Shown here piece by piece: positions 1,949 through 11,837 of a stretch of 13,789 nucleotides of DNA. The first letter of the stretch is position 1, and every line of letters begins with the position of its first letter. Made by a program: the position numbers and the translations under genes. Origin of the DNA: a virus (taxonomy: Duplodnaviria > Heunggongvirae > Uroviricota > Caudoviricetes); the IMG/VR virus record IMGVR_UViG_2568526722_000003, positions 1 to 13,789 of that record, one strand, 5' to 3'. The notes under the pieces were generated by a model. That model saw only the letters and a list, made by a program, of their open reading frames with translations. It was not told the DNA's origin and ran no database searches.

Positions 1949-2046
1949 TTACGCCAGTTGTACGGACACGAACTCATCAGGGTCAGCCAGCAGCATCAGC
2001 GGTGCTGACTGAATCATGGTGAACTCACGCGCCGGATCCGCCAGAT
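1949..2046 (-). pseudogene. E: C-terminal remnant of major capsid gene E (last ~24 codons ...FTMIQSAPLMLLADPDEFVSVQLA*)
   Basis: Minus-strand frame just upstream of FI encodes FTMIQSAPLMLLADPDEFVSVQLA-stop, recalled as the gpE C-terminus; homology stops upstream where sequence switches to Nu1. Confidence 0.5.
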
Positions 2047-2202
2047 TTCGGCATACCATTTTATGACGGCGGCAGAGTCATAAAGCACCTCATTACCCTT
2101 GCCACCGCCTCGCAGAACGGGCATTCCCTGTTCCTGCCAGTTCTGAATGGTACGGATACTCGCACCGAAAATGTCAGCCAGCTGCTTTTTGTTGACTTCC
2201 AT
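2014..2202 (-). pseudogene. nu1: Terminase small subunit Nu1, N-terminal 52 codons only, fused to foreign tail (IWRIRRVSSP*)
   Basis: MEVNKKQLADIFGASIRTIQNWQEQGMPVLRGGGKGNEVLYDSAAVIKWYAE matches lambda Nu1 residues 1-52 as recalled; the next 10 codons are not Nu1 and run into the gene E remnant; junction around 2040-2047. Confidence 0.85.
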
Positions 2203-2379
2203 TGTTCATTCCACGGCCAAAAACAGAGAAAGGAAACGACAAAGGCCCAAAAGCTCGTTTTCAGCACCTGTCGTTTCCTTTCTTTTCAGGGGGTATTTTA
2301 AATAAAAACATTAAGTTACGACGAAGAAGAACGGAAACACCTTAAACCGGAAAATTTTCATAAATAGCAAAAACCCGCG

Positions 2380-2391
2380 AGGTCGCCGCCC
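2380..2391 (-). other. cos: cos site: 12-nt lambda cohesive end GGGCGGCGACCT (cosN core), with cosB/Nu1 leader on one side and lambda right-end sequence on the other
   Basis: Minus strand reads ...CCGGCGATCCGACAGGTTACG|GGGCGGCGACCT|CGCGGGTTTTTGCTATTTATGAAAATTTTCCGGTTTAAGG..., matching the joined lambda right and left ends as recalled; lies about 180 nt upstream of the Nu1 start. Confidence 0.85.
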
Positions 2392-2590
2392 CGTAACCTG
2401 TCGGATCGCCGGAAAGGACCCGCAAAATGATAATAATTATCATCTGCATGTCACAACGTGCATCTACGCCATCAAACCACGTCAAATAATCAATTATGAC
2501 GCAGGTATCATATTAATTGATCTGCATCAACTTAACGTAAAAACAACTTCAGACAATACAAATCAGCGACACTGAATACGGGACAACCTC

Positions 2591-2824
2591 ATGTCAACGA
2601 AGAACAGAACCCGCAGAACAACAACCCGCAACATCCGCTTTCCTAACCAAATGATTGAACAAATTAACATCGCTCTTGATCAAAAAGGGTCTGGGAACTT
2701 CTCAGCCTGGGTCATTGAAGCCTGCCGCCGAAGACTGTGCTCAGAAAAAAGAGTTTCGCCTGAAGCAAACAAAGAAAAGAGTGACATTACTGAATTGCTC
2801 AGAAAGCAGGTCAGACCAGATTGA
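2591..2824 (+). CDS. Small ribbon-helix-helix-like DNA-binding protein (77 aa), possibly YlcI/DUF3950-like
   Basis: ATG ORF; basic N-terminal tail (KNRTRRTTTR), then predicted beta-strand NIRFP and two helices (NQMIEQINIALDQ / FSAWVIEACRRRL), typical RHH topology; AT-rich; the family name is from memory and unverified. Confidence 0.55.
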   Translation: MSTKNRTRRTTTRNIRFPNQMIEQINIALDQKGSGNFSAWVIEACRRRLCSEKRVSPEANKEKSDITELLRKQVRPD

Positions 2825-2881
2825 AGCAATTTAGATAATCGTGCAGACTAGGTACCCTCATATCACATGGAAGGTACTACA

Positions 2882-3292
2882 ATGGCTCAGGTTGCCATTT
2901 TTAAACAAATATTCGATAAAGTGCGAAATAATTTAAACTATCACTGGTTTTATTCTGAACTAAAACGTCACAATGTCTCACATTACATTTACTATTTAGC
3001 CACAGAGAATATTCATCTTGTTCTTGAAAACGATAATACGGTTTTAATAAAAGGACAGGGTAAGGTTGTAAATGTAAGATTTTCAAAAAATAAATGCCTT
3101 ATAGAAGCCACATTAAAAGGATTCAAATCAGGAGAGTTATCATTTTACGAATACAGGAAAAATCTTGCTACAGCAGGGGTTTTCAGATGGATTACAAATA
3201 TCCACGAAAACAAAAGGTATTACTATACCTTTGATAATTCATTACTCTTTACTGAGAACATTCAGAACACTACACAAATATTTCCGCACTAA
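2882..3292 (+). CDS. AT-rich hypothetical protein (~137 aa), possibly DUF1398/YbcV-like moron
   Basis: Uninterrupted ORF; ATG at 2882 has a GGAAGG Shine-Dalgarno 7 nt upstream (the track start at 2867 has none); strongly AT-rich codon usage unlike the flanking phage genes; the family assignment is a recollection. Confidence 0.55.
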
Positions 3293-3337
3293 ATCATAAC
3301 GTCCGGTTTCTTCCGTGCCAGAACCGGACTCGCTGGC

Positions 3338-3502
3338 ATGATGAAATATGTGTACCCGGTAACCCCGGTGTGCATCGTTTTTGATTATTCCCGCACACTC
3401 GCGCAGAAGGAGTTCCCCGTCGGGCTACGGTCTCTGTTAATACGGGAATACGGCGACGATACAGCGCATGATGTGTCAGGCTTGAATACCTTTATCCTTT
3501 AA
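3338..3502 (+). CDS. Possible small ORF, 54 aa (MMKYVYPVTPVCIVFDYSRTLAQKEFPVGLRSLLIREYGDDTAHDVSGLNTFIL)
   Basis: ATG-initiated ORF just under the 60-aa track cutoff; sits between a stem-loop (3301-3329) and hairpin element A; no clear Shine-Dalgarno. Confidence 0.2.
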   Translation: MMKYVYPVTPVCIVFDYSRTLAQKEFPVGLRSLLIREYGDDTAHDVSGLNTFIL

Positions 3503-3970
3503 AAGGGATATCAGTTAAGTTATCCCGTGTAGGGTATAAGCCATTATCAAAGCCACTCTGTAGGGAATGGCTTTTGTGATGGCATCACTTACTCTTTACG
3601 CTGCTATCCCACTCATCCCGGAATTTTGATGGGTTATTGAAACCTTCTGCTGACATAACAACTCCTTCAATGTTTGGCTGAAATTAGGATGTCTTTCCAT
3701 CAGTCCGCCACCACAAAGAATCTTTTTTGCCATAAGGCAGGAGGTTCATCTTTCAGTGGCTGCCGGTGTTATTTCCCCACTTACTGGCTTGGGTTGTTTC
3801 GTGGTACTGCCGTTAACTGGTGGCGCACAGATTTAGTTAAATCCGTTCTCGCCTGAACTATCTTTTACATACCCGGATTGTGGGGATGTAAATCACGGTT
3901 TCATTATCAAGCCCACCAGTAGATGGGCTTTGTAATGAAGAGTTGTTATGAAAATTGCTCTAAACAAGCA

Positions 3971-4459
3971 TTAATAGCCATCAGAAGTAATCGCTACAGA
4001 TTTCAATCCCTCAATGTCATCCTTGGACAGGGCGAACCATTCACCGTGCTTTCTCTTTGCGGCAAATTTGCGATGAAGCATGTTTTCAGTTTCTCTTCCA
4101 CCAGGGATCAGGCACTCAAGCTTCAAGCAGTCTGGTCCAGAGTTGCCAAGCGATTTGATGCGTTGTGGAATGTTGGATGAATACCCAATTTTGGTTAGCC
4201 CAGTTTTCTTCGATGACAAAACGTATACCTGAGGAGGTTCTTTTCTCTGGTCTTCCATTACACGTCTCATTGTTGCCATAAGTCCGCCGTGCATCAGCAT
4301 TTCAACAAAGAACGCTGACCGAACACCTGACGACTTAAGCATGCCAGAAAATTCACTTGCCAATTCCATTAACTCTGCGATGTTTTCAGGAACTTTTTGG
4401 CAGTTATCTTCCTTGTATAAGGAAATCATTCTTTGAAGCTTTTCTTCTAATTGGTTCAT
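3971..4459 (-). CDS. T5orf172 / GIY-YIG-like domain protein (~162 aa) with an unrecognised N-terminal region
   Basis: C-terminal half (VYVLSSKKTGLTKIGYSSNIPQRIKSLGNSGPDCLKLECLIPGGRETENMLHRKFAAKRKHGEWFALSKDDIEGL) fits the T5orf172/MUG113 pattern (YVYxL...KIG.T.N..RR...L...E..LH..F...R..GEWF); the track start at 4495 is GTG, the first ATG is at 4457-4459 (MNQLEEK...). Confidence 0.6.
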   Translation of the reverse strand: MNQLEEKLQRMISLYKEDNCQKVPENIAELMELASEFSGMLKSSGVRSAFFVEMLMHGGLMATMRRVMEDQRKEPPQVYVLSSKKTGLTKIGYSSNIPQRIKSLGNSGPDCLKLECLIPGGRETENMLHRKFAAKRKHGEWFALSKDDIEGLKSVAITSDGY

Positions 4460-4608
4460 AGCGTCTTTACCTTTTAGAAAGTGAGCCTGTCTCACAGAAA
4501 AGCCGCCCCGAGATGGTCGCCACCATATACGGCAGTTCTCAGGCTCAACTTTCTGAAAGGCTCGGGTGATGTAATATGCGCGTGAGATGCGCTGTGAAAT
4601 TCAGATGT

Positions 4609-4632
4609 AAAAAAAGCCCCGCATCGCGAGGC
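4609..4632 (-). terminator. Rho-independent terminator downstream of Rz/Rz1
   Basis: Minus strand GCCTCGCGATGCGGGGC (7-bp GC-rich stem with one G-U pair, 3-nt loop) followed by TTTTTTT, about 30 nt after the Rz stop. Confidence 0.6.
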
Positions 4633-4664
4633 TCATTAAATGGACTTTGTGATTTGCAAAAAAA

Positions 4665-5123
4665 TTATTTCAGGCATTGCGTCCTGATGTATTCCTGCAG
4701 GTAGTTAACCTGCGCGGTTATCTTGTCGATTCCACTTCGGAGACGGTAATAATTGAGTTCAGCATCTGCTGTAAGTCCTGGGCTTTCTCCATCGCCCATG
4801 CCGCTGGCTCCGGTCGTTGACTTTGCACAGGTGGCGGCGACTTGCAGGCGCTTACGCCCAGCAGAAACATCAGCACGGAGACTTTCGATAGTCGCGTTAG
4901 CATCAGCAAGCTCCTTTGTGTATCTTGCGTCGAGTTCTGCTACATCACGTTGACGCTTCCGCATGTCAGCGATGGTGGCGTTCGCCTTCTCCAGTTCACT
5001 GGCCTTGTTATCGCGCTGCTCTTTGTAGGCGATTGCGTTATCACGGTAATGATTAACAGCCCATGACAGGCAGACGATGATGCAGATACCCGGCACTACC
5101 TGCTGAGGTGCCATAGGCGACAC
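4665..5123 (-). CDS. Rz: Spanin inner-membrane subunit Rz (i-spanin), N-terminus chimeric
   Basis: From [19 protein letters not shown]...KELADA... onward resembles lambda Rz as recalled; the first ~12 codons (from a GTG start) are encoded within the holin stub in another frame. Confidence 0.7.
4718..4903 (-). CDS. Rz1: Spanin outer-membrane lipoprotein Rz1 (o-spanin), embedded in Rz in the +1 frame
   Basis: [36 protein letters not shown]...: signal peptide with lipobox (LGVSAC) followed by a proline-rich region, wholly inside Rz as in lambda Rz/Rz1; ATG at 4901-4903. Confidence 0.7.
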
Positions 5124-5151
5124 CCGTTGTTAACTTATCCATGGATTTCAT
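5059..5151 (-). pseudogene. Holin remnant: first ~22 codons of a phage-21/DLP12 EssD-type holin ([22 protein letters not shown]), then out-of-frame read into Rz and stop
   Basis: ATG at 5149-5151 with GAGGTG Shine-Dalgarno; N-terminus matches S21/EssD as recalled; after ~22 codons the sequence continues as Rz in another frame; no endolysin ORF lies between holin and Rz. Confidence 0.65.
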
Positions 5152-5260
5152 AACCCCACCTCGCAGACAAAGCGGGTGTAAATTGAGGGAATACTACGAA
5201 ACGTAACAGACTCGGAGTCAGTGAATAACTCAGGTATTGGGTTATCAGCTAATATCGAGA

Positions 5261-5296
5261 CTCAAAAAATGGAAAAACCCACTCGACGGCGGGTTT
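5261..5296 (-). terminator. Candidate intrinsic terminator on the late-operon strand upstream of the holin stub
   Basis: Minus strand AAACCC-gccgtcgagt-GGGTTT followed by TTCCATTTTTTGAG. Confidence 0.3.
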
Positions 5297-5724
5297 AAGC
5301 TGTGTGACGAAGTAACCACTCTTAACAGCATAACCAATTTTTTACGTACGTAAACCACTAAATGATATTTGCGAGAATGCTACCGAGTATTGAAAACACC
5401 ACTACAAATACATAAGCAAATCTCAACAAATAACCAACAAATAATTCCCAGTGTTATTTTTAGCCGATTTAAATTGAACCTTCAAATCATAGAGCACTTA
5501 TAAATAACAACCGTTAATATAAATTGGCTAATAGATTTATTTTTATTCAGCCAAGAGCCATGAATAGGATTCGATAGAAAAAAGTTCAGATAAAAATAGA
5601 GATCTACTTCACAAATCAAACGAGAAACCAAAACTTACATCTTGAAATAATCATATTGATTAGATGAATATTTATCGCGCAGTGACATCATTTTTTAATA
5701 ATAGTTCAAAAAAAAGGGCTCACG

Positions 5725-6822
5725 ATGAAAAAATTAACAGTGGCAATTTCTGCTGTAGCTGCATCAGTACTGATGGCGATGTCTGCTCAGGCAGCTGAAA
5801 TTTATAATAAAGACAGTAACAAGCTGGATCTGTACGGGAAAGTTAATGCTAAGCACTACTTCTCCTCTAATGATGCAGATGATGGTGATACTACTTATGC
5901 CCGTCTTGGCTTCAAAGGTGAAACCCAAATCAACGATCAACTGACTGGTTTCGGTCAGTGGGAATATGAATTCAAAGGCAACCGCGCTGAATCTCAAGGT
6001 TCCTCCAAAGATAAAACCCGTCTTGCCTTCGCTGGCCTGAAATTCGGTGACTACGGCTCCATCGATTACGGCCGTAACTACGGTGTAGCATACGACATCG
6101 GTGCGTGGACTGACGTTCTGCCAGAATTCGGTGGCGATACCTGGACCCAAACAGATGTGTTCATGACTGGTCGCACCACTGGTGTTGCAACCTATCGTAA
6201 CAACGACTTCTTTGGTCTGGTTGATGGTCTGAACTTTGCTGCTCAGTACCAAGGCAAAAACGATCGTAGCGATTTCGATAACTACACCGAAGGTAACGGT
6301 GATGGCTTCGGTTTCTCTGCTACCTATGAATACGAAGGATTCGGTATCGGTGCAACTTATGCGAAATCTGATCGTACCGACACTCAAGTTAATGCAGGGA
6401 AAGTTCTTCCTGAAGTATTTGCTTCCGGTAAAAATGCAGAAGTTTGGGCCGCAGGTCTGAAATATGACGCTAACAACATTTACCTGGCCACTACCTATTC
6501 TGAAACCCAGAATATGACTGTATTTGCTGATCACTTCGTTGCTAATAAAGCTCAAAACTTCGAAGCTGTTGCACAATATCAGTTCGATTTCGGTCTGCGT
6601 CCGTCCGTTGCTTACCTGCAATCTAAAGGTAAGGATCTTGGAGTATGGGGCGATCAGGACTTAGTCAAATATGTTGATGTAGGTGCAACCTATTACTTCA
6701 ACAAAAATATGTCTACTTTCGTTGATTACAAAATCAACCTGCTTGACAAAAATGACTTCACTAAAGCACTCGGTGTAAGCACTGATGACATCGTTGCTGT
6801 AGGTCTGGTTTACCAGTTCTAA
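5725..6822 (+). CDS. nmpC: OmpC-family outer-membrane porin (NmpC / phage Lc type), 365 aa, intact
   Basis: Signal peptide [23 protein letters not shown]|AEIYNKD, porin motifs and C-terminal ...VAVGLVYQF; full-length and uninterrupted; opposite orientation to Q and the lysis genes, as for DLP12 nmpC and PA-2 lc. Confidence 0.9.
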
Positions 6823-6830
6823 TCTGATTA

Positions 6831-6872
6831 CGAAAAAGATATGTTGCGGGAGGCTTTGCCTCCCCAACATAT
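6831..6872 (-). terminator. Candidate late terminator (tR'-like) downstream of Q on the minus strand
   Basis: Minus strand ATATGTTGGGGAGGC-aaag-GCCTCCCGCAACATAT (about 15-bp stem) followed by CTTTTTCG; about 140 nt downstream of the Q stop. Confidence 0.45.
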
Positions 6873-6960
6873 AAGTGGCTCCCTCAAGCCACTTCCTTTA
6901 GGAGCACAACCTTGCTTCTAACTATATAAACCTTCTGTTATATATTACCCTTTATTTTTG

Positions 6961-6990
6961 GGGGCGTTGCAACGCCCCATTTTTAATAAT
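6961..6990 (+). terminator. Rho-independent terminator for the porin gene; perfect 18-bp palindrome
   Basis: GGGGCGTTGCAACGCCCC followed by ATTTTTAATAATTTTT on the plus strand. Confidence 0.5.
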
Positions 6991-7011
6991 TTTTAGTAAA
7001 CAACTGGCATA

Positions 7012-7395
7012 TTAATTAGAGTTATTAACAACGATATCCATCTCTAACCGGATATCTAATGCCATTAACATCCCTTCAATTATGCCCTCAGCCTTCTGTA
7101 ACCTTTTCCCGATATAACCATCAGAGCAGCAATGCTTACCTGCCAGTGACATGAATGTCATACCGACTACATAATAATCTACTAATAAATCGTGCAAATC
7201 GCTGTTGTTCTTTTTCAGACGGGCCATGCACCCGCAAATAATCATCGCGTCATCGTCACAACATTGCGGGCGAGATTTTACTTTTGAAGTAATTAATCCC
7301 TTAAAACCGGCGGCAATGGACGACCAGGTCACATCTTCATGATTATTAGCCGCCCACGCTCCCCAACGCTCAAGAACCATCTGAATATCACGCAT
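7012..7395 (-). CDS. Q: Late-gene antiterminator Q, phage 21/82 (DLP12 QuuD) type, 127 aa
   Basis: [34 protein letters not shown]...[16 protein letters not shown]... matches DLP12-type Q as recalled; ATG at 7393-7395 (the track start at 7410 is TTG). Confidence 0.85.
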
Positions 7396-7480
7396 CAACT
7401 TACTCCACAAAAATCAGGCCAGAACGCCAATTACAAGCAAAAATCAACAAAACAGTATTAGTTGATTGTTATCTCTGACT

Positions 7481-7621
7481 TCATACTCCTGCTCCTGTCA
7501 GGGTTTTGGCGTAATTCTTCAGTATTCGGTAATCGGTCAAAACAGAACCGGGGGAACGATATAAGCGCAGACGCCCCCAGCGGTGGCGAAGAAGTTCTGC
7601 CATATTAAACTCAAACATCAT
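7481..7621 (-). CDS. ylcG: Small protein YlcG-like (46 aa)
   Basis: Hand-translated [49 protein letters not shown]; its ATG overlaps the rusA stop (ATGA); matches DLP12 YlcG as recalled; below the track size cutoff. Confidence 0.6.
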
Positions 7622-7980
7622 TCATTCCCCATTTCGGTGATGGTCAGTTCCAGCCTCCCACCTTTGGTAACAGGCATCTTCACAACGCGGTAATCAACGA
7701 CCTGAGCATCATCCAGCCAGAAACCTGCTTTAGTGAGTGCGTCAAAAGCGGCTTTTTGCAGATTATCCAGGTCACGGCGACGGCGATCCGGCATGTGGCA
7801 CTCAATGCGGATTTTCACAGGCATAGCCAGGCCGATATCCAGCATTGCGTTTTTAATGATTCGGGCGACGTTATCGCGGTATGCCTGCCCCTCTGCGCTG
7901 ACGTGCGTGCGCCCTCGATTATGGCGGTAGTAGCGGTTATTGCTCGGCGGCCAGGGTAGTGTGATGTGGTAAGTATTCAC
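7618..7980 (-). CDS. rusA: Holliday-junction resolvase RusA, 120 aa
   Basis: (M)[37 protein letters not shown]...[28 protein letters not shown]... matches RusA as recalled; GTG start overlapping the upstream stop (GTGA). Confidence 0.93.
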
Positions 7981-8066
7981 GCCTTAATTACCCCCTCTTT
8001 CAGCCAGATAACCTGCGTTCTCGCCATACCTTCCAGCGCGCATTCTTTTGCATATGCAGCATCGAC
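7977..8066 (-). pseudogene. ybcO: C-terminal remnant of a YbcO-like (DUF1364) gene, about 29 codons
   Basis: Frame ending ...[29 protein letters not shown] with the stop overlapping the rusA start; matches the YbcO C-terminus as recalled; further upstream the frame hits a stop and no N-terminal YbcO-like sequence appears in any frame. Confidence 0.4.
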
Positions 8067-8186
8067 TTGCTTGGCATGCCCTTTACCGGCAATCTTCTGT
8101 ATGCGCTAAACCTAGATAGAATCCACTCTGTGCACATTGAAGCCCGCTCTATGCTTCCTTTCAGGTATTGAAGGGATTGAGATGGG

Positions 8187-8534
8187 CTAAGCATTATTGG
8201 CCTCCTGCATCAGGAGAAAGACAATCATGGCGGCGCGGAGAGGTCTGGTATCAAATATTGGGCTTACGCCTTTTGCATCCACACACCATTCAGTTAACTG
8301 GTCTAAGATAGAAATCCTGTATTTCTCAATAATCGGCCATGAAGCGCTCGGATCATTGCAGTAGTCAGGCAAATGATTTAATGGCTCAAAAGTTGTATCA
8401 GCATTTCCGTAATACCATTTGTTGGTGTTATTCCCTGATGTTTCCGGTTTACTTGCCCAAAGGCCTTTAAAAATTATGTCTCCTACCATTCTGTTAATTT
8501 CAAAATCACTTAACTGTGAATAATCCATTGTCAT
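8187..8534 (-). CDS. Hypothetical nin-region protein (~115 aa)
   Basis: [92 protein letters not shown]...; ATG overlaps the ninE stop (ATGA); GAGGAA nearby; family not recognised. Confidence 0.5.
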
Positions 8535-8707
8535 TTCCTCGCACGATATCTTAGCCACCGGATATCCCACAGGTGAGCTGTGTAATTGAAGGTTTTTACG
8601 TCAGATTCTTTTGGGATTGGCTTGCGTTTATTTCTGGAGCGTTTCGTTGGAAGGTATTTGCAGTTTTCGCAGATGATGTCGGTGAAACTTCGTCGCTGTC
8701 GCCTCAT
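8531..8707 (-). CDS. ninE: NinE, 58 aa
   Basis: [58 protein letters not shown] matches lambda NinE as recalled; ATG overlaps the methyltransferase stop. Confidence 0.75.
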
Positions 8708-9231
8708 GCCGCCCTCCTGACGCCCTGCCCGAACGCCATCAATGCCGCTTTGGATACGGTAGTAAACATCCGTCGAGGACTGATGAACGGTCGCCAAATC
8801 AGCAGCATGGAGCCTTTGCTGTTTCCCTTCTTCTCCAGCCCTGTCGATGGTTCGATAAAATTAATCCGTCCATCAGTGATAATGCGAACTTCGTCGACAC
8901 TCTCCAGAGCCTTGCTGAACCATCCGACTGACATATCCTCTGGCACAAGCATAACTACCGTCTGTCGCTGTTGTATGCACTGCTCAGCGGCTTTTTCCAC
9001 CCACGGCCTGATATTGCTGTACGGTGGGTTATTCCAGATTGCACCGTGGCTTACCCACTCAGAATTGAGCGCGTCGTCGGCCTCAGTTAGCCAGTGAGCA
9101 CACAGAGCATTTTTGTCGCTCGCTGCCGAATCCAGCCAGAATCCAAACTCAATATCCAGTGCATCAAAAAGCCAAAGCGGCGTTTGCCAGCAGTCCTTGT
9201 CGTGTGCTGGCGTATTTGATTTGATAGTCAT
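8704..9231 (-). CDS. Phage Dam-like DNA N6-adenine methyltransferase (~175 aa)
   Basis: [50 protein letters not shown]...[16 protein letters not shown]...: NPPY catalytic motif and DxxA...WxTP pattern of the small phage N6-A methyltransferase family; ATG at 9229-9231 with GGGGAGA upstream; overlaps the ninB stop. Confidence 0.75.
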
Positions 9232-9737
9232 GCAGCTCGATCTCCCCATCTCGCTTTCCACTCCAGAGCCAGTCTCGCTTCGTCTGACCACTTAACGCCA
9301 CGCTCTGTACCGAATGCCTGTATAAGCTCTAATAGCTCCGCAAATTCGTTTACACGCATCCTGCTGGTTGACTGGCCTATTACCACAAAGCCATTCCCGG
9401 CAAGGTTAGGAACAACATCCTGCTGCTTTAATGCTGCGGTAAACACACACTTCCAGCTTTCTGCATCCAGCCAGCGACCATGCCATTCAACCTGACGAGA
9501 GACGTCACCAAGGCAAGCCCAAAGCTTTCGATTCTGGTCTAAGCTGCGGTTGCGTTCCTGAATGGTTACTACGATTGGTTTGGTTGGGTCTGGAAGAATT
9601 TGCTGTAACCGCCCTATTCTCTCGCTGAATCGCAAACCGAAATCACGAGTAGAAAGCGCACTGAATCCGATAGACCTTACGGTGCTGGCTGAATACCACG
9701 AACAGATTGAAAGCAACCTGCAACGTATTGAGCGCAA
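9228..9737 (-). CDS. ninB: Recombination protein NinB (Orf), C-terminal ~125 aa lambda-like, N-terminal ~44 codons atypical with no canonical start
   Basis: From QQILPDPTKPIVVTIQERNRSLDQNRKLWACLGDVSRQVEWHGRWLDAESWKCVFTAALKQQ... to the stop matches lambda NinB as recalled; the preceding 44 codons do not, and the track start is a TTG. Confidence 0.65.
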   Translation of the reverse strand: MRSIRCRLLSICSWYSASTVRSIGFSALSTRDFGLRFSERIGRLQQILPDPTKPIVVTIQERNRSLDQNRKLWACLGDVSRQVEWHGRWLDAESWKCVFTAALKQQDVVPNLAGNGFVVIGQSTSRMRVNEFAELLELIQAFGTERGVKWSDEARLALEWKARWGDRAA

Positions 9738-9839
9738 GAATCATCGAGTTTGGTATAGCAAGCCAAGTGAGTTCGGTATAACTTGTCAAGGAAGACAAAA
9801 GGTTAAAGGGAAATCCATTCCATTGGCATGAGGTACGTA

Positions 9840-10169
9840 ATGAAGAAAATTGATTACAAGTCCATACCAAAACCAATAGACTCAGCATCAGAGCGAAAAA
9901 AACACAAAAAAGAGGCTGAAAAATTAGCAAATTATATCAGTTTTATTAGAAACAATGCTCACGGCGATGGCGACAGGAAGTTGCTTTCAGATGCCCGGAC
10001 CCAAGCGTTCAGTATACTTCGTAAGCAGATGCAATATCGTCTTCATCCAGGCTACATAATTGAAATTCGCCCGACTGAAAGACAATTGTTCTTATTAAAC
10101 TCTGTCTTTGACTTTGTAAACGTAGTTGGAGATCTTATCGACAGGTCTGTAGATAAGGCTCCTGGGTGA
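9840..10169 (+). CDS. AT-rich hypothetical protein, 3' end cut by IS1 (stop supplied by the IS1 left end)
   Basis: ORF MKKIDYKSIPKPIDSASERKKHKKEAEKLANYISFIRNNAHGDGDRKLLSDARTQAFSILRKQMQYRLHPGYIIEIRPTERQLFLLNSVFDFVNVVGDLIDRSVDKAPG*; ATG at 9840 with GAGG 8 nt upstream; low GC; the last codons and stop (GG TGA) are IS1 sequence; no family recognised. Confidence 0.45.
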   Translation: MKKIDYKSIPKPIDSASERKKHKKEAEKLANYISFIRNNAHGDGDRKLLSDARTQAFSILRKQMQYRLHPGYIIEIRPTERQLFLLNSVFDFVNVVGDLIDRSVDKAPG

Positions 10170-10219
10170 TGCTGCCAACTTACTGATTTAGTGTATGATG
10201 GTGTTTTTGAGGTGCTCCA

Positions 10220-10495
10220 GTGGCTTCTGTTTCTATCAGCTGTCCCTCCTGTTCAGCTACTGACGGGGTGGTGCGTAACGGCAAAAGCACCGCCGGACAT
10301 CAGCGCTATCTCTGCTCTCACTGCCGTAAAACATGGCAACTGCAGTTCACTTACACCGCTTCTCAACCCGGTACGCACCAGAAAATCATTGATATGGCCA
10401 TGAATGGCGTTGGATGCCGGGCAACTGCCCGCATTATGGGCGTTGGCCTCAACACGATTTTACGTCACTTAAAAAACTCAGGCCGCAGTCGGTAA
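10220..10495 (+). CDS. insA: IS1 InsA (transposition inhibitor / transposase N-terminal part), 91 aa
   Basis: [43 protein letters not shown]... matches IS1 InsA. Confidence 0.95.
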
Positions 10496-10917
10496 CCTCG
10501 CGCATACAGCCGGGCAGTGACGTCATCGTCTGCGCGGAAATGGACGAACAGTGGGGCTATGTCGGGGCTAAATCGCGCCAGCGCTGGCTGTTTTACGCGT
10601 ATGACAGTCTCCGGAAGACGGTTGTTGCGCACGTATTCGGTGAGCGCACTATGGCGACGCTGGGGCGTCTTATGAGCCTGCTGTCACCCTTTGACGTGGT
10701 GATATGGATGACGGATGGCTGGCCGCTGTATGAATCCCGCCTGAAGGGAAAGCTGCACGTAATCAGCAAGCGATATACGCAGCGAATTGAGCGGCATAAC
10801 CTGAATCTGAGGCAGCACCTGGCACGGCTGGGACGGAAGTCGCTGTCGTTCTCAAAATCGGTGGAGCTGCATGACAAAGTCATCGGGCATTATCTGAACA
10901 TAAAACACTATCAATAA
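10414..10917 (+). CDS. insB: IS1 InsB' frame (transposase catalytic part, expressed as InsAB' by -1 frameshift)
   Basis: ...[72 protein letters not shown]... matches IS1 InsB. Confidence 0.93.
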
Positions 10918-11042
10918 GTTGGAGTCATTACCAGAAAGCAGGTCTTTCTCTCGTGTAGAGATAAGCGAGTCAGAGTTATGGGGTATATCAAATAATCCTG
11001 TAAACCACGCTCACCAACGAAATCCAAACAAAAAGTGGTCAT

Positions 11043-11600: not shown

Positions 11601-11672
11601 GCGCGGCGTTACCGCATACCAATAACGCTTCACTCGAGGCGTTTTTCGTTATGTATAAATAAGGAGCACACC

Positions 11673-11837
11673 ATGCAATATGCCATTGCAGGGTGGCCTG
11701 TTGCTGGCTGCCCTTCCGAATCTTTACTTGAACGAATCACCCGTAAATTACGTGACGGATGGAAACGCCTTATCGACATACTTAATCAGCCAGGAGTCCC
11801 AAAAAATGGATCAAACACTTATGGCTATCCAGACTAA
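11673..11837 (+). CDS. cIII: CIII (FtsH/HflB protease inhibitor), 54 aa
   Basis: Hand-translated [54 protein letters not shown] matches lambda CIII; AAGGAG Shine-Dalgarno upstream; the track merged it with kil. Confidence 0.9.
   Translation: MQYAIAGWPVAGCPSESLLERITRKLRDGWKRLIDILNQPGVPKNGSNTYGYPD

Follow-up and report, generated by a model that had tools for sequence, protein, structure and literature searches.

The closest described relatives of the porin gene considered here are lc of the lambdoid phage PA-2 and nmpC of the Escherichia coli K-12 prophage DLP12. PA-2 lysogens reportedly make the Lc porin as a major protein, and papers from the Schnaitman laboratory are said to describe adsorption of PA-2 to OmpC as its receptor. 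Castillo-Keller 2006 and papers of the Schnaitman laboratory reportedly delimit ipeX by the stop codon of nmpC on one side and the nmpC terminator on the other, and the 3' UTR of PA-2 lc is said to lower OmpC. In DLP12, ipeX is a 167-nt RNA that arises from the phage porin promoter within the porin transcript and controls OmpC (PMC12197685), and regulation of OmpF by IpeX has also been described (PMC7177473). The promoter, PnmpC, has been characterised in K-12, where deletion of positions -199 to -1 abolishes nmpC-driven transcription and where a transcription start site was located in the same interval by 5' RACE; the promoter is described as activated by CRP and repressed by OmpR, IHF and MprA (PMC11677980). 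The gene, its promoter, its small RNA and its presence in wild strains have all been described already.

Here, a window of 13,789 nucleotides, this being the whole stretch of DNA that was analysed, was compared with these systems. E. coli chromosomes that match the window do so at 99.9-100% identity, and in them the locus lies between ompT/appY and argU/fimZ/sfm, which is the DLP12 site of K-12. Its matches and flanking genes identify the window as the remnant of a prophage at the DLP12 position (argU) in an E. coli other than K-12. The reading that is favoured here, with a probability of roughly 90%, is that this remnant carries an intact Lc/NmpC porin cassette, complete with PnmpC and an IpeX 3' UTR, which would serve as an extra general porin and bring about a porin swap.

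The porin coding sequence (nmpC/lc) occupies positions 5725-6822 on the forward strand and runs from ATG to TAA, encoding a protein of 365 aa, the same length as that encoded by PA-2 lc. The predicted protein shares 363 of 365 residues with PA-2 Lc (protein 2; GenBank J02580) and, after removal of IS5B from the K-12 gene, the same number with K-12 NmpC (DLP12/qsr', b0553). Both of these porins, to each of which it is 99.5% identical, have been reported as functional. At the nucleotide level, K-12 nmpC minus IS5B is 1098 nt long, equal to the window ORF, and differs from it by 16 nt and 2 aa. Because of the common 1098-nt length and the 2-aa distance to each of NmpC and Lc, the ORF is assigned to nmpC (= lc), which encodes the lysogenic-conversion porin of lambdoid phages of the PA-2/DLP12 type, and represents an intact allele. 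The differing residues are confined to four positions. K-12 NmpC has Q149/A151 in L3, where the window porin has G149/T151, like PA-2 Lc, whereas the Lc record has H99/F154 against R99/V154 in the window porin. The window residues G149 and V154 are those of OmpF, R99 is common to OmpC and OmpF, and T151 matches PA-2 Lc. Since R99 aligns with the OmpF constriction arginine, R82, and V154 is as in OmpF, the window porin has the canonical residues. The L3 polymorphism, which lies beside a constriction arginine, might mark functionally distinct pore variants.

The window and K-12 DLP12 are also alike in arrangement, both being integrated at argU and having the porin gene flanked by quuD and essD, which lie on the other strand. 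However, the K-12 gene is interrupted by IS5 after codon 346, whereas the window gene is free of IS5, and DLP12 keeps essD-rrrD-rzpD with other regions gone, whereas the window has lost the holin and endolysin genes while bet/exo/gam and some tail genes remain. The first-pass annotation had described a full-length OmpC-family porin with an intact signal peptide, lying between Q and dead lysis genes as the intact counterpart of the IS5-disrupted DLP12 gene, and had proposed comparison with the Lc and NmpC sequences; that comparison, together with the shared argU/fimZ...appY/ompT locus and the features set out below, bears out the description in each of these respects.

Features of the encoded protein are those of a complete precursor. 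The signal peptide (5725-5793), the mature porin (5794-6819) and the stop codon (6820-6822) follow one another on the forward strand. As judged by sequence rules, the signal peptide comprises 23 aa, with an MKK start, a hydrophobic core and an AXA-type end (AQA, followed by AE), and leads into a mature protein beginning AEIYNK, just as in the annotated 23-aa sig_peptide of PA-2 lc. In a profile search, residues 29-365 cover positions 1-337 of the 337 in Pfam PF00267 Porin_1 (E=1e-156); the NCBIfam OmpC-subfamily score is 526.5 bits against a cut-off of 484, and residues 24-365 match solved OmpC and OmpK36 structures with E=1e-135. K-12 OmpC and OmpF are 65% and 62% identical to the window porin, respectively, with the constriction, latching-loop and C-terminal residues all kept. 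PhoE of E. coli and OmpD of Salmonella belong to the same Pfam family. Alignment with these two proteins places the PEFGGD motif of the L3 constriction loop at P133-D138, and shows retention of the L2 glutamate E89 and of the basic cluster K39/R60/R99/R150 opposite the acidic L3 residues D130/E134; in OmpF numbering the cluster corresponds to K16, R42, R82 and R132. The C-terminus, GLVYQF, ends in an aromatic residue as in OmpC and OmpF. Inactivating substitutions in the barrel, which the first-pass annotation had named as potentially telling against its proposal, were looked for in the alignment with OmpC and OmpF and none was found, all known key residues being present. The ORF is thus best described, on its predicted features, as a complete OmpC/OmpF-class general-diffusion porin precursor that is real and probably functional, and the 62-65% full-length identity to solved OmpC/OmpF would imply a 16-stranded beta-barrel trimer with channel activity.

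The genes on either side of the porin were examined next to it on the map. Downstream and convergent with the porin lies an intact quuD gene (7012-7395, reverse strand), encoding a Q antiterminator that matches the full Pfam Phage_antitermQ model and is identical to K-12 QuuD. On the other side lies a lysis remnant (4665-5151, reverse strand), such that the porin is on the strand opposite to both Q and the lysis genes. The essD (holin) remnant (5086-5151, reverse strand) comprises, by comparison with K-12 EssD, the first 22 codons followed by out-of-frame sequence, and is annotated as a RefSeq pseudogene in identical genomes. A 1.4-kb deletion, with its junction at 5083-5088, has fused codon 22 of essD to codon 13 of Rz, the two sides overlapping by 6 bp. 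The Rz gene (i-spanin; 4665-5123, reverse strand; Pfam Phage_lysis) has consequently had its first 12 residues replaced: J31 Rz has the N-terminus VSRVAAIIYALV, and the window Rz has 12 other residues there. Nested within Rz is an intact Rz1 (o-spanin) ORF (4718-4909, reverse strand). A scan also revealed a terminator-like hairpin with a T-run (5275-5296, reverse strand), 124 nt upstream of the essD start, which, by analogy with the lambda-like pR'-tR'-S geometry, is possibly the late-operon tR'. Published work on DLP12 has employed a lysis-operon regulatory fragment extending from -121 to +650; this fragment and the hairpin at 5296-5275 (reverse strand) together suggest that pR' lies between the porin and essD, and thus is divergent from PnmpC. 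A Q-controlled switch operating via antisense pR' transcription through the porin was considered, and was set aside given this apparent position of pR'.

The extent of decay across the remnant was defined with BLAST by aligning the window to a prophage of strain J31 (L004) that appears to be complete; in this comparison window positions 2046-5088 correspond to 11618-14660 of the complete prophage, and 5083-9612 to 16066-20592. Three large deletions were evident. A 6.7-kb deletion at 2042/2046 has removed part of the capsid gene, the decoration protein, protease, portal and large terminase genes and part of nohD; the 1.4-kb deletion at 5083-5088 has removed most of essD, two small ORFs, the endolysin gene and the first 35 nt of Rz; and a 6.3-kb deletion or replacement at 9612-10163 has removed ren, P, O, cII, cro and cI. 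An IS1 element occupies 10163-10932. The DNA that is kept is 95.6-99.4% identical to the complete prophage, with values of 98-99% around the porin. Of the ORFs that the deletions missed, most are intact (Q, rusA, the ninB-ninX genes, bet, exo, gam, kil, cIII, tail U/Z and a GIY-YIG gene), and the other surviving genes are free of frameshifts. The remnant has decayed by three large deletions and one IS1 insertion, not by point mutations. The claims in the first-pass annotation that the lysis genes are dead and that the phage functions surrounding the porin are broken are therefore correct, in that holin, endolysin, head, replication and immunity functions have been lost, although most ORFs elsewhere in the remnant have survived whole.

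A porin cassette of this kind is also carried by phages, in keeping with the earlier proposal that the gene is cargo of a lambdoid prophage. The promoter-porin-ipeX cassette was found beside a holin gene in 45 phage records, namely PA-2, mEp332, Kati, several ECOR-derived phages and a 434B recombinant among others, and a QuuD-type Q (at least 97% identity) was found in 47, adjoining the cassette in the records listed for both searches. No phage with a QuuD-type Q but lacking the porin was identified among the phage records, and the cassette therefore behaves like a fixed part of a late-region module. The Q-porin-holin order, with the porin on the opposite strand, is seen also in K-12, J31, PA-2 and 434B; the 434B copy retains IS5 after codon 346, which indicates that it was picked up from K-12. 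The viable phage PA-2 differs from the window in that its lysis cassette is intact, whereas that of the window is broken. With a promoter region and a terminator of its own, and on the strand opposite to the phage operons, the porin cassette is self-contained and in these respects resembles a moron.

A further-reduced relative is found at another chromosomal site, in the yedK-fliE island of uropathogenic strain 536 (UPEC 536), beside emrE, ybcL and ybcM. The porin of this island (WP_000737290.1; 360 aa), which is probably the same as CFT073 c2348, is 92% identical to the window porin at the amino acid level, with differences in the L4-L6 surface loops. Homology between island and window, at 86% nucleotide identity, begins 340 bp upstream of the porin, extends through ipeX and reaches into the final 100 nt of Q, beyond which the match switches to the DLP12 ybcM region. 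All phage genes have gone from the island, and the promoter, porin and ipeX have been kept. The continuity of homology from upstream of the porin into this part of Q indicates that the island is a further-reduced DLP12-like remnant in which only the cargo is left.

Whether the porin in the window has been kept by selection, as the first-pass annotation supposed when it described the gene as selected cargo, was considered at two levels. At the level of the family, the dN/dS ratio between porin alleles is 0.07-0.09, and the porin family is under purifying selection. At the level of the window remnant, a case can be made that the porin is a neutral passenger, intact since the remnant is young and its few large deletions happened to miss the gene, with no selective upkeep in the host; this explanation has something close to an even chance of being correct, though slightly below it. 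In its favour, the decay consists of three deletions (about 6.7, 1.4 and 6.3 kb) and one IS1, and the other survivors are as free of frameshifts as the porin. Moreover, the exact lysis-deletion junction is confined to 8 of the 5426 complete E. coli genomes, and in all 8 the 2-kb junction-porin-ipeX stretch aligns as a single piece with a reported identity of 100.0%. These two observations indicate that the remnant is young, and in a young remnant an intact porin ORF is expected with or without selection; since the 8 genomes look clonal, counting them has no power to test retention. The cassette has also been lost or damaged elsewhere. IS5 has knocked out nmpC in K-12 and the gene is truncated in B strains through IS elements, and an IS1 insertion in nmpC has been described (bioRxiv 10.64898/2026.08.19.745717); the porin has been deleted, with 41 bp left, in about 11 of 60 sampled genomes, and the island copy in other strains is deleted from nt 42 through ipeX. 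It has been argued, in addition, that NmpC is useless or harmful, as it increases sensitivity to colicins and phages (PMC11677980).

Conversely, several observations sit poorly with neutrality. Beyond the low dN/dS ratio, the cassette has outlasted all of the phage genes in the yedK-fliE island. Full-length nmpC-type copies account for about 11 of the 60 evenly sampled hits, and a full-length 1083-nt relative of the island type for about 25, and full-length porin genes adjoin other rearrangements of the lysis cassette, for example in NZ_CP062889.1. The last of these observations, along with the restriction of the island to the promoter, porin, ipeX, emrE and ybcLM, hints that the porin-ipeX cassette could be a domesticated host porin-switch, actively retained while the phage killing functions were purged. 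This idea is tentative, its probability lying at around a third, and if true it would extend a long-presumed notion as opposed to revealing a new kind of system. Selection on the porin thus has real support at the family level, whereas the argument for the window remnant is weak; that selection has kept the cassette in this particular remnant is plausible, and the earlier description of the porin as selected cargo is plausible for the family (on the dN/dS ratio and the yedK-fliE island) but is undermined for the window by the youth of the remnant and by the IS-mediated and deletional losses elsewhere.

The reading of the locus as an intact Lc/NmpC cassette supposes also that the porin can be expressed. 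The PnmpC promoter region (-199 to -1) maps to 5526-5724 on the forward strand, with an RBS, AAGGG, at 5714-5718. The 190-199 nt preceding the porin ATG are identical to PA-2, the -199 to -1 interval differs from K-12 at 2 positions, and the 573-bp spacer from the porin to essD is near-identical to those of K-12 and PA-2. A proximal CRP site is located at 5596-5616 (forward strand) by alignment with PA-2 GenBank feature 1363-1383, and a sequence scan found AGAGATCTACTTCACA at 5598, with 2 mismatches from the CRP core. A distal CRP site with the core TGTGACGAAGTAACCA is located at 5300-5320 (forward strand) by alignment with PA-2 GenBank feature 1067-1087, the sequence of which is identical. 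At the sequence level, the window porin has its own CRP-dependent promoter, PnmpC.

An alternative is that the ORF is intact but the gene quiescent, as a result of H-NS silencing or of repression by OmpR, IHF or MprA, such that it contributes little to the outer membrane; this is considered unlikely. The 300 bp upstream of the porin are 27-33% GC, and H-NS silences AT-rich DNA of this kind. Scans for a sigma-70 consensus upstream of the porin found no convincing -35/-10 elements, and a relaxed scan returned several weak candidates, e.g. an extended -10, TGaAATAAT, at 5643-5651; CRP-dependent promoters usually lack a strong sigma-70 consensus. Repressors of PnmpC are listed in PMC11677980, and nmpC is termed a 'quiescent' porin gene in the title of Prilipov 1998. 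Against silence, however, the window and PA-2 have identical promoter regions, and among the 11 IS5 copies of K-12 a read-through transcript was detected only from PnmpC (PMC11677980). In an evolution experiment, loss of IS1 from nmpC was alone enough to switch on nmpC mRNA and to raise permeability to cefotaxime (bioRxiv 10.64898/2026.08.19.745717). Strong mRNA and protein signals, preferentially at 37 C, have been described for nmpC-type porins in CFT073 (PMC12890032), and one of the outer-membrane protein spots of AIEC strains has been assigned to NmpC (PMC9409007). The AT-rich upstream region and the listed repressors nevertheless leave room for condition-dependent silencing.

Immediately downstream of the porin, positions 6823-6989 (forward strand) cover the 167 nt that follow the stop codon, up to where a terminator T-run ends, and correspond to the 3' UTR of the porin mRNA. 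The region contains four hairpins followed by an intrinsic terminator, with a stem at 6961-6978 and a T-run, and folds with an MFE of -62.4 kcal/mol (z=-7.9 versus shuffles). It is 4 nt apart from the K-12, PA-2 and J31 sequences; the changes at 6855 and 6968-6969 fall in hairpin loops, and that at 6902 turns an A-U pair into a G-U pair. Following what is reported from Castillo-Keller 2006, ipeX is placed directly after the porin stop codon, and the fact that exactly 167 nt separate this codon from the far end of the T-run supports the placement. An Rfam scan of the whole window returned no family for the porin 3' UTR, its sole match being the lambda cIII thermoregulator; in view of the lack of an Rfam model, ipeX was assigned from sequence identity to K-12 and PA-2 and from the literature. 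On that basis, the 3' UTR is identified as the IpeX RNA, the predicted repressor of OmpC and OmpF. Neither this RNA nor the opposite-strand orientation of the porin was mentioned in the first-pass annotation.

Extrapolating from the K-12 and PA-2 literature, the intact cassette probably operates as follows. Host RNA polymerase would transcribe the porin in the lysogen, phage induction not being needed, with cAMP-CRP turning transcription on, OmpR, IHF and MprA turning it off, and growth at 37 C being favoured. The porin would be exported and would form trimers in the outer membrane, constituting an extra general porin, and the co-transcribed IpeX would lower the synthesis of OmpC and OmpF. Since an extra porin would be combined with lowered OmpC and OmpF, the cassette would swap the porin set of the cell. 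The swap would be expected to change permeability, for example to beta-lactams, and to alter which phages and colicins are able to adsorb; altered permeability and an altered phage-receptor profile, as put forward in the first-pass annotation, are indeed the textbook role of Lc/NmpC. The window porin would differ in these respects from general porins of the OmpC/OmpF/PhoE type, which are chiefly under EnvZ-OmpR control, in that it is phage-borne and CRP-activated, and in that the 3' UTR of its gene harbours a porin-repressing sRNA. A strain that has an intact copy may carry both an extra general porin and a repressor of OmpC and OmpF, which can shift beta-lactam permeability and phage and colicin sensitivity relative to K-12 and B laboratory strains, in which the gene has been knocked out by IS elements.

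The assignment also has a bearing on annotation. The identical porin protein is present on at least 1000 public contigs, under database names that include 'outer membrane porin protein LC', 'putative outer membrane porin protein NmpC' and, often, 'porin OmpC'; NZ_CP062853.1 is one genome that carries this allele. Although this last label and a score above the NCBIfam OmpC-subfamily cut-off might suggest that the gene is the ompC of the host itself, or was recently copied from it, such an origin can be dismissed, given only 65% identity to K-12 OmpC, 99.5% identity to Lc and NmpC, and a position that, in phage genomes and prophages alike, is flanked by Q and the holin gene. The appropriate name for the gene is nmpC/lc, not ompC, and that for its 3' UTR is ipeX.

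The amino acid differences between the porin and NmpC of K-12 flank the constriction arginine, R150, on both sides within loop L3 (codons 149-151, window 6169-6177). The window porin has G-R-T at these codons, as does the Lc porin of the lambdoid phage PA-2, whereas both K-12 and J31, the strain with the complete prophage, have Q-R-A. This difference around R150 could feasibly tune the properties of the pore. In the sequenced stock of phage 434B (OL657227.1, 2822-5118), nmpC is interrupted by IS5 after codon 346, and the nmpC-IS5 segment sits inside a block annotated as a 'region of 434 nonhomology'. Phage 434B has gained the Q-nmpC-lysis segment of K-12 DLP12 via recombination with its laboratory host.

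The 189-bp spacer that separates the convergent porin and Q genes (window 6823-7011) is densely structured on both strands. The plus strand reads ipeX within this interval, while the minus strand includes a hairpin with one bulge (about 6839-6872), followed by CTTTTTCG, which could serve as a candidate terminator for transcripts leaving Q. On the other side of the porin, a terminator-like hairpin with a T-run is located on the minus strand at 5275-5296, 124 nt upstream of essD, and a weak promoter-like site (TTGAAG-18-AAAAAT, about 5450-5490, minus strand) lies ∼180 nt further upstream, with a spacing similar to that of lambda pR'-tR'. If real, the promoter-like site would constitute a late promoter divergent from PnmpC, the porin's own promoter, with both located in the same 573-bp spacer between the porin and essD.

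The two flanks of the lysis-cassette deletion overlap by 6 bp (window 5083-5088), suggesting that the deletion was microhomology-mediated. Rz is joined by the deletion to out-of-frame holin sequence, which results in a new 12-residue N-terminus. For ∼22 other genomes the match fell into two pieces, covering essD, the lysozyme gene and rzpD over a span of roughly 530-770 bp, which points to lysis-cassette arrangements unlike that of the window; a full-length porin is present in at least one of these genomes (NZ_CP062889.1). Just downstream of Rz is a GIY-YIG/T5orf172 nuclease-like gene (3971-4459, minus strand; Pfam MUG113 and T5orf172), whereas in K-12 DLP12 and 434B this position is occupied by bor (borD).

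A second nmpC-type porin, of 360 amino acids and with 92% amino acid identity, is encoded in the yedK-fliE island of UPEC 536 (L007, 3663-7520), where it is accompanied by emrE, ybcL and ybcM, phage genes being absent. The promoter region of the porin persists there, as do ipeX and the final ∼100 nt of Q, so the island is a DLP12-like remnant that has been reduced much further and sits elsewhere in the chromosome. The island porin was found in approximately 25 of the 60 genomes sampled, with the match limited to 41 nt in ∼11 of the 60. In strain 503025 (L008, 3667-4166) a clean deletion has removed the island porin and ipeX; what remains is the promoter region, 41 nt of porin coding sequence and the Q stub.

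A full-model match to Rfam RF01804, the cIII thermoregulator RNA element of lambda, scores 88.5 bits (11660-11718, plus strand) and extends into the beginning of the cIII ORF (11673-11837); the early-left operon is intact in this part. The replication and immunity genes have been lost through a 6.3-kb deletion/replacement, at the edge of which lies an IS1A copy (10163-10932). Beside IS1A, an additional 292 bp that the window lacks are present in the closest genome (L003).
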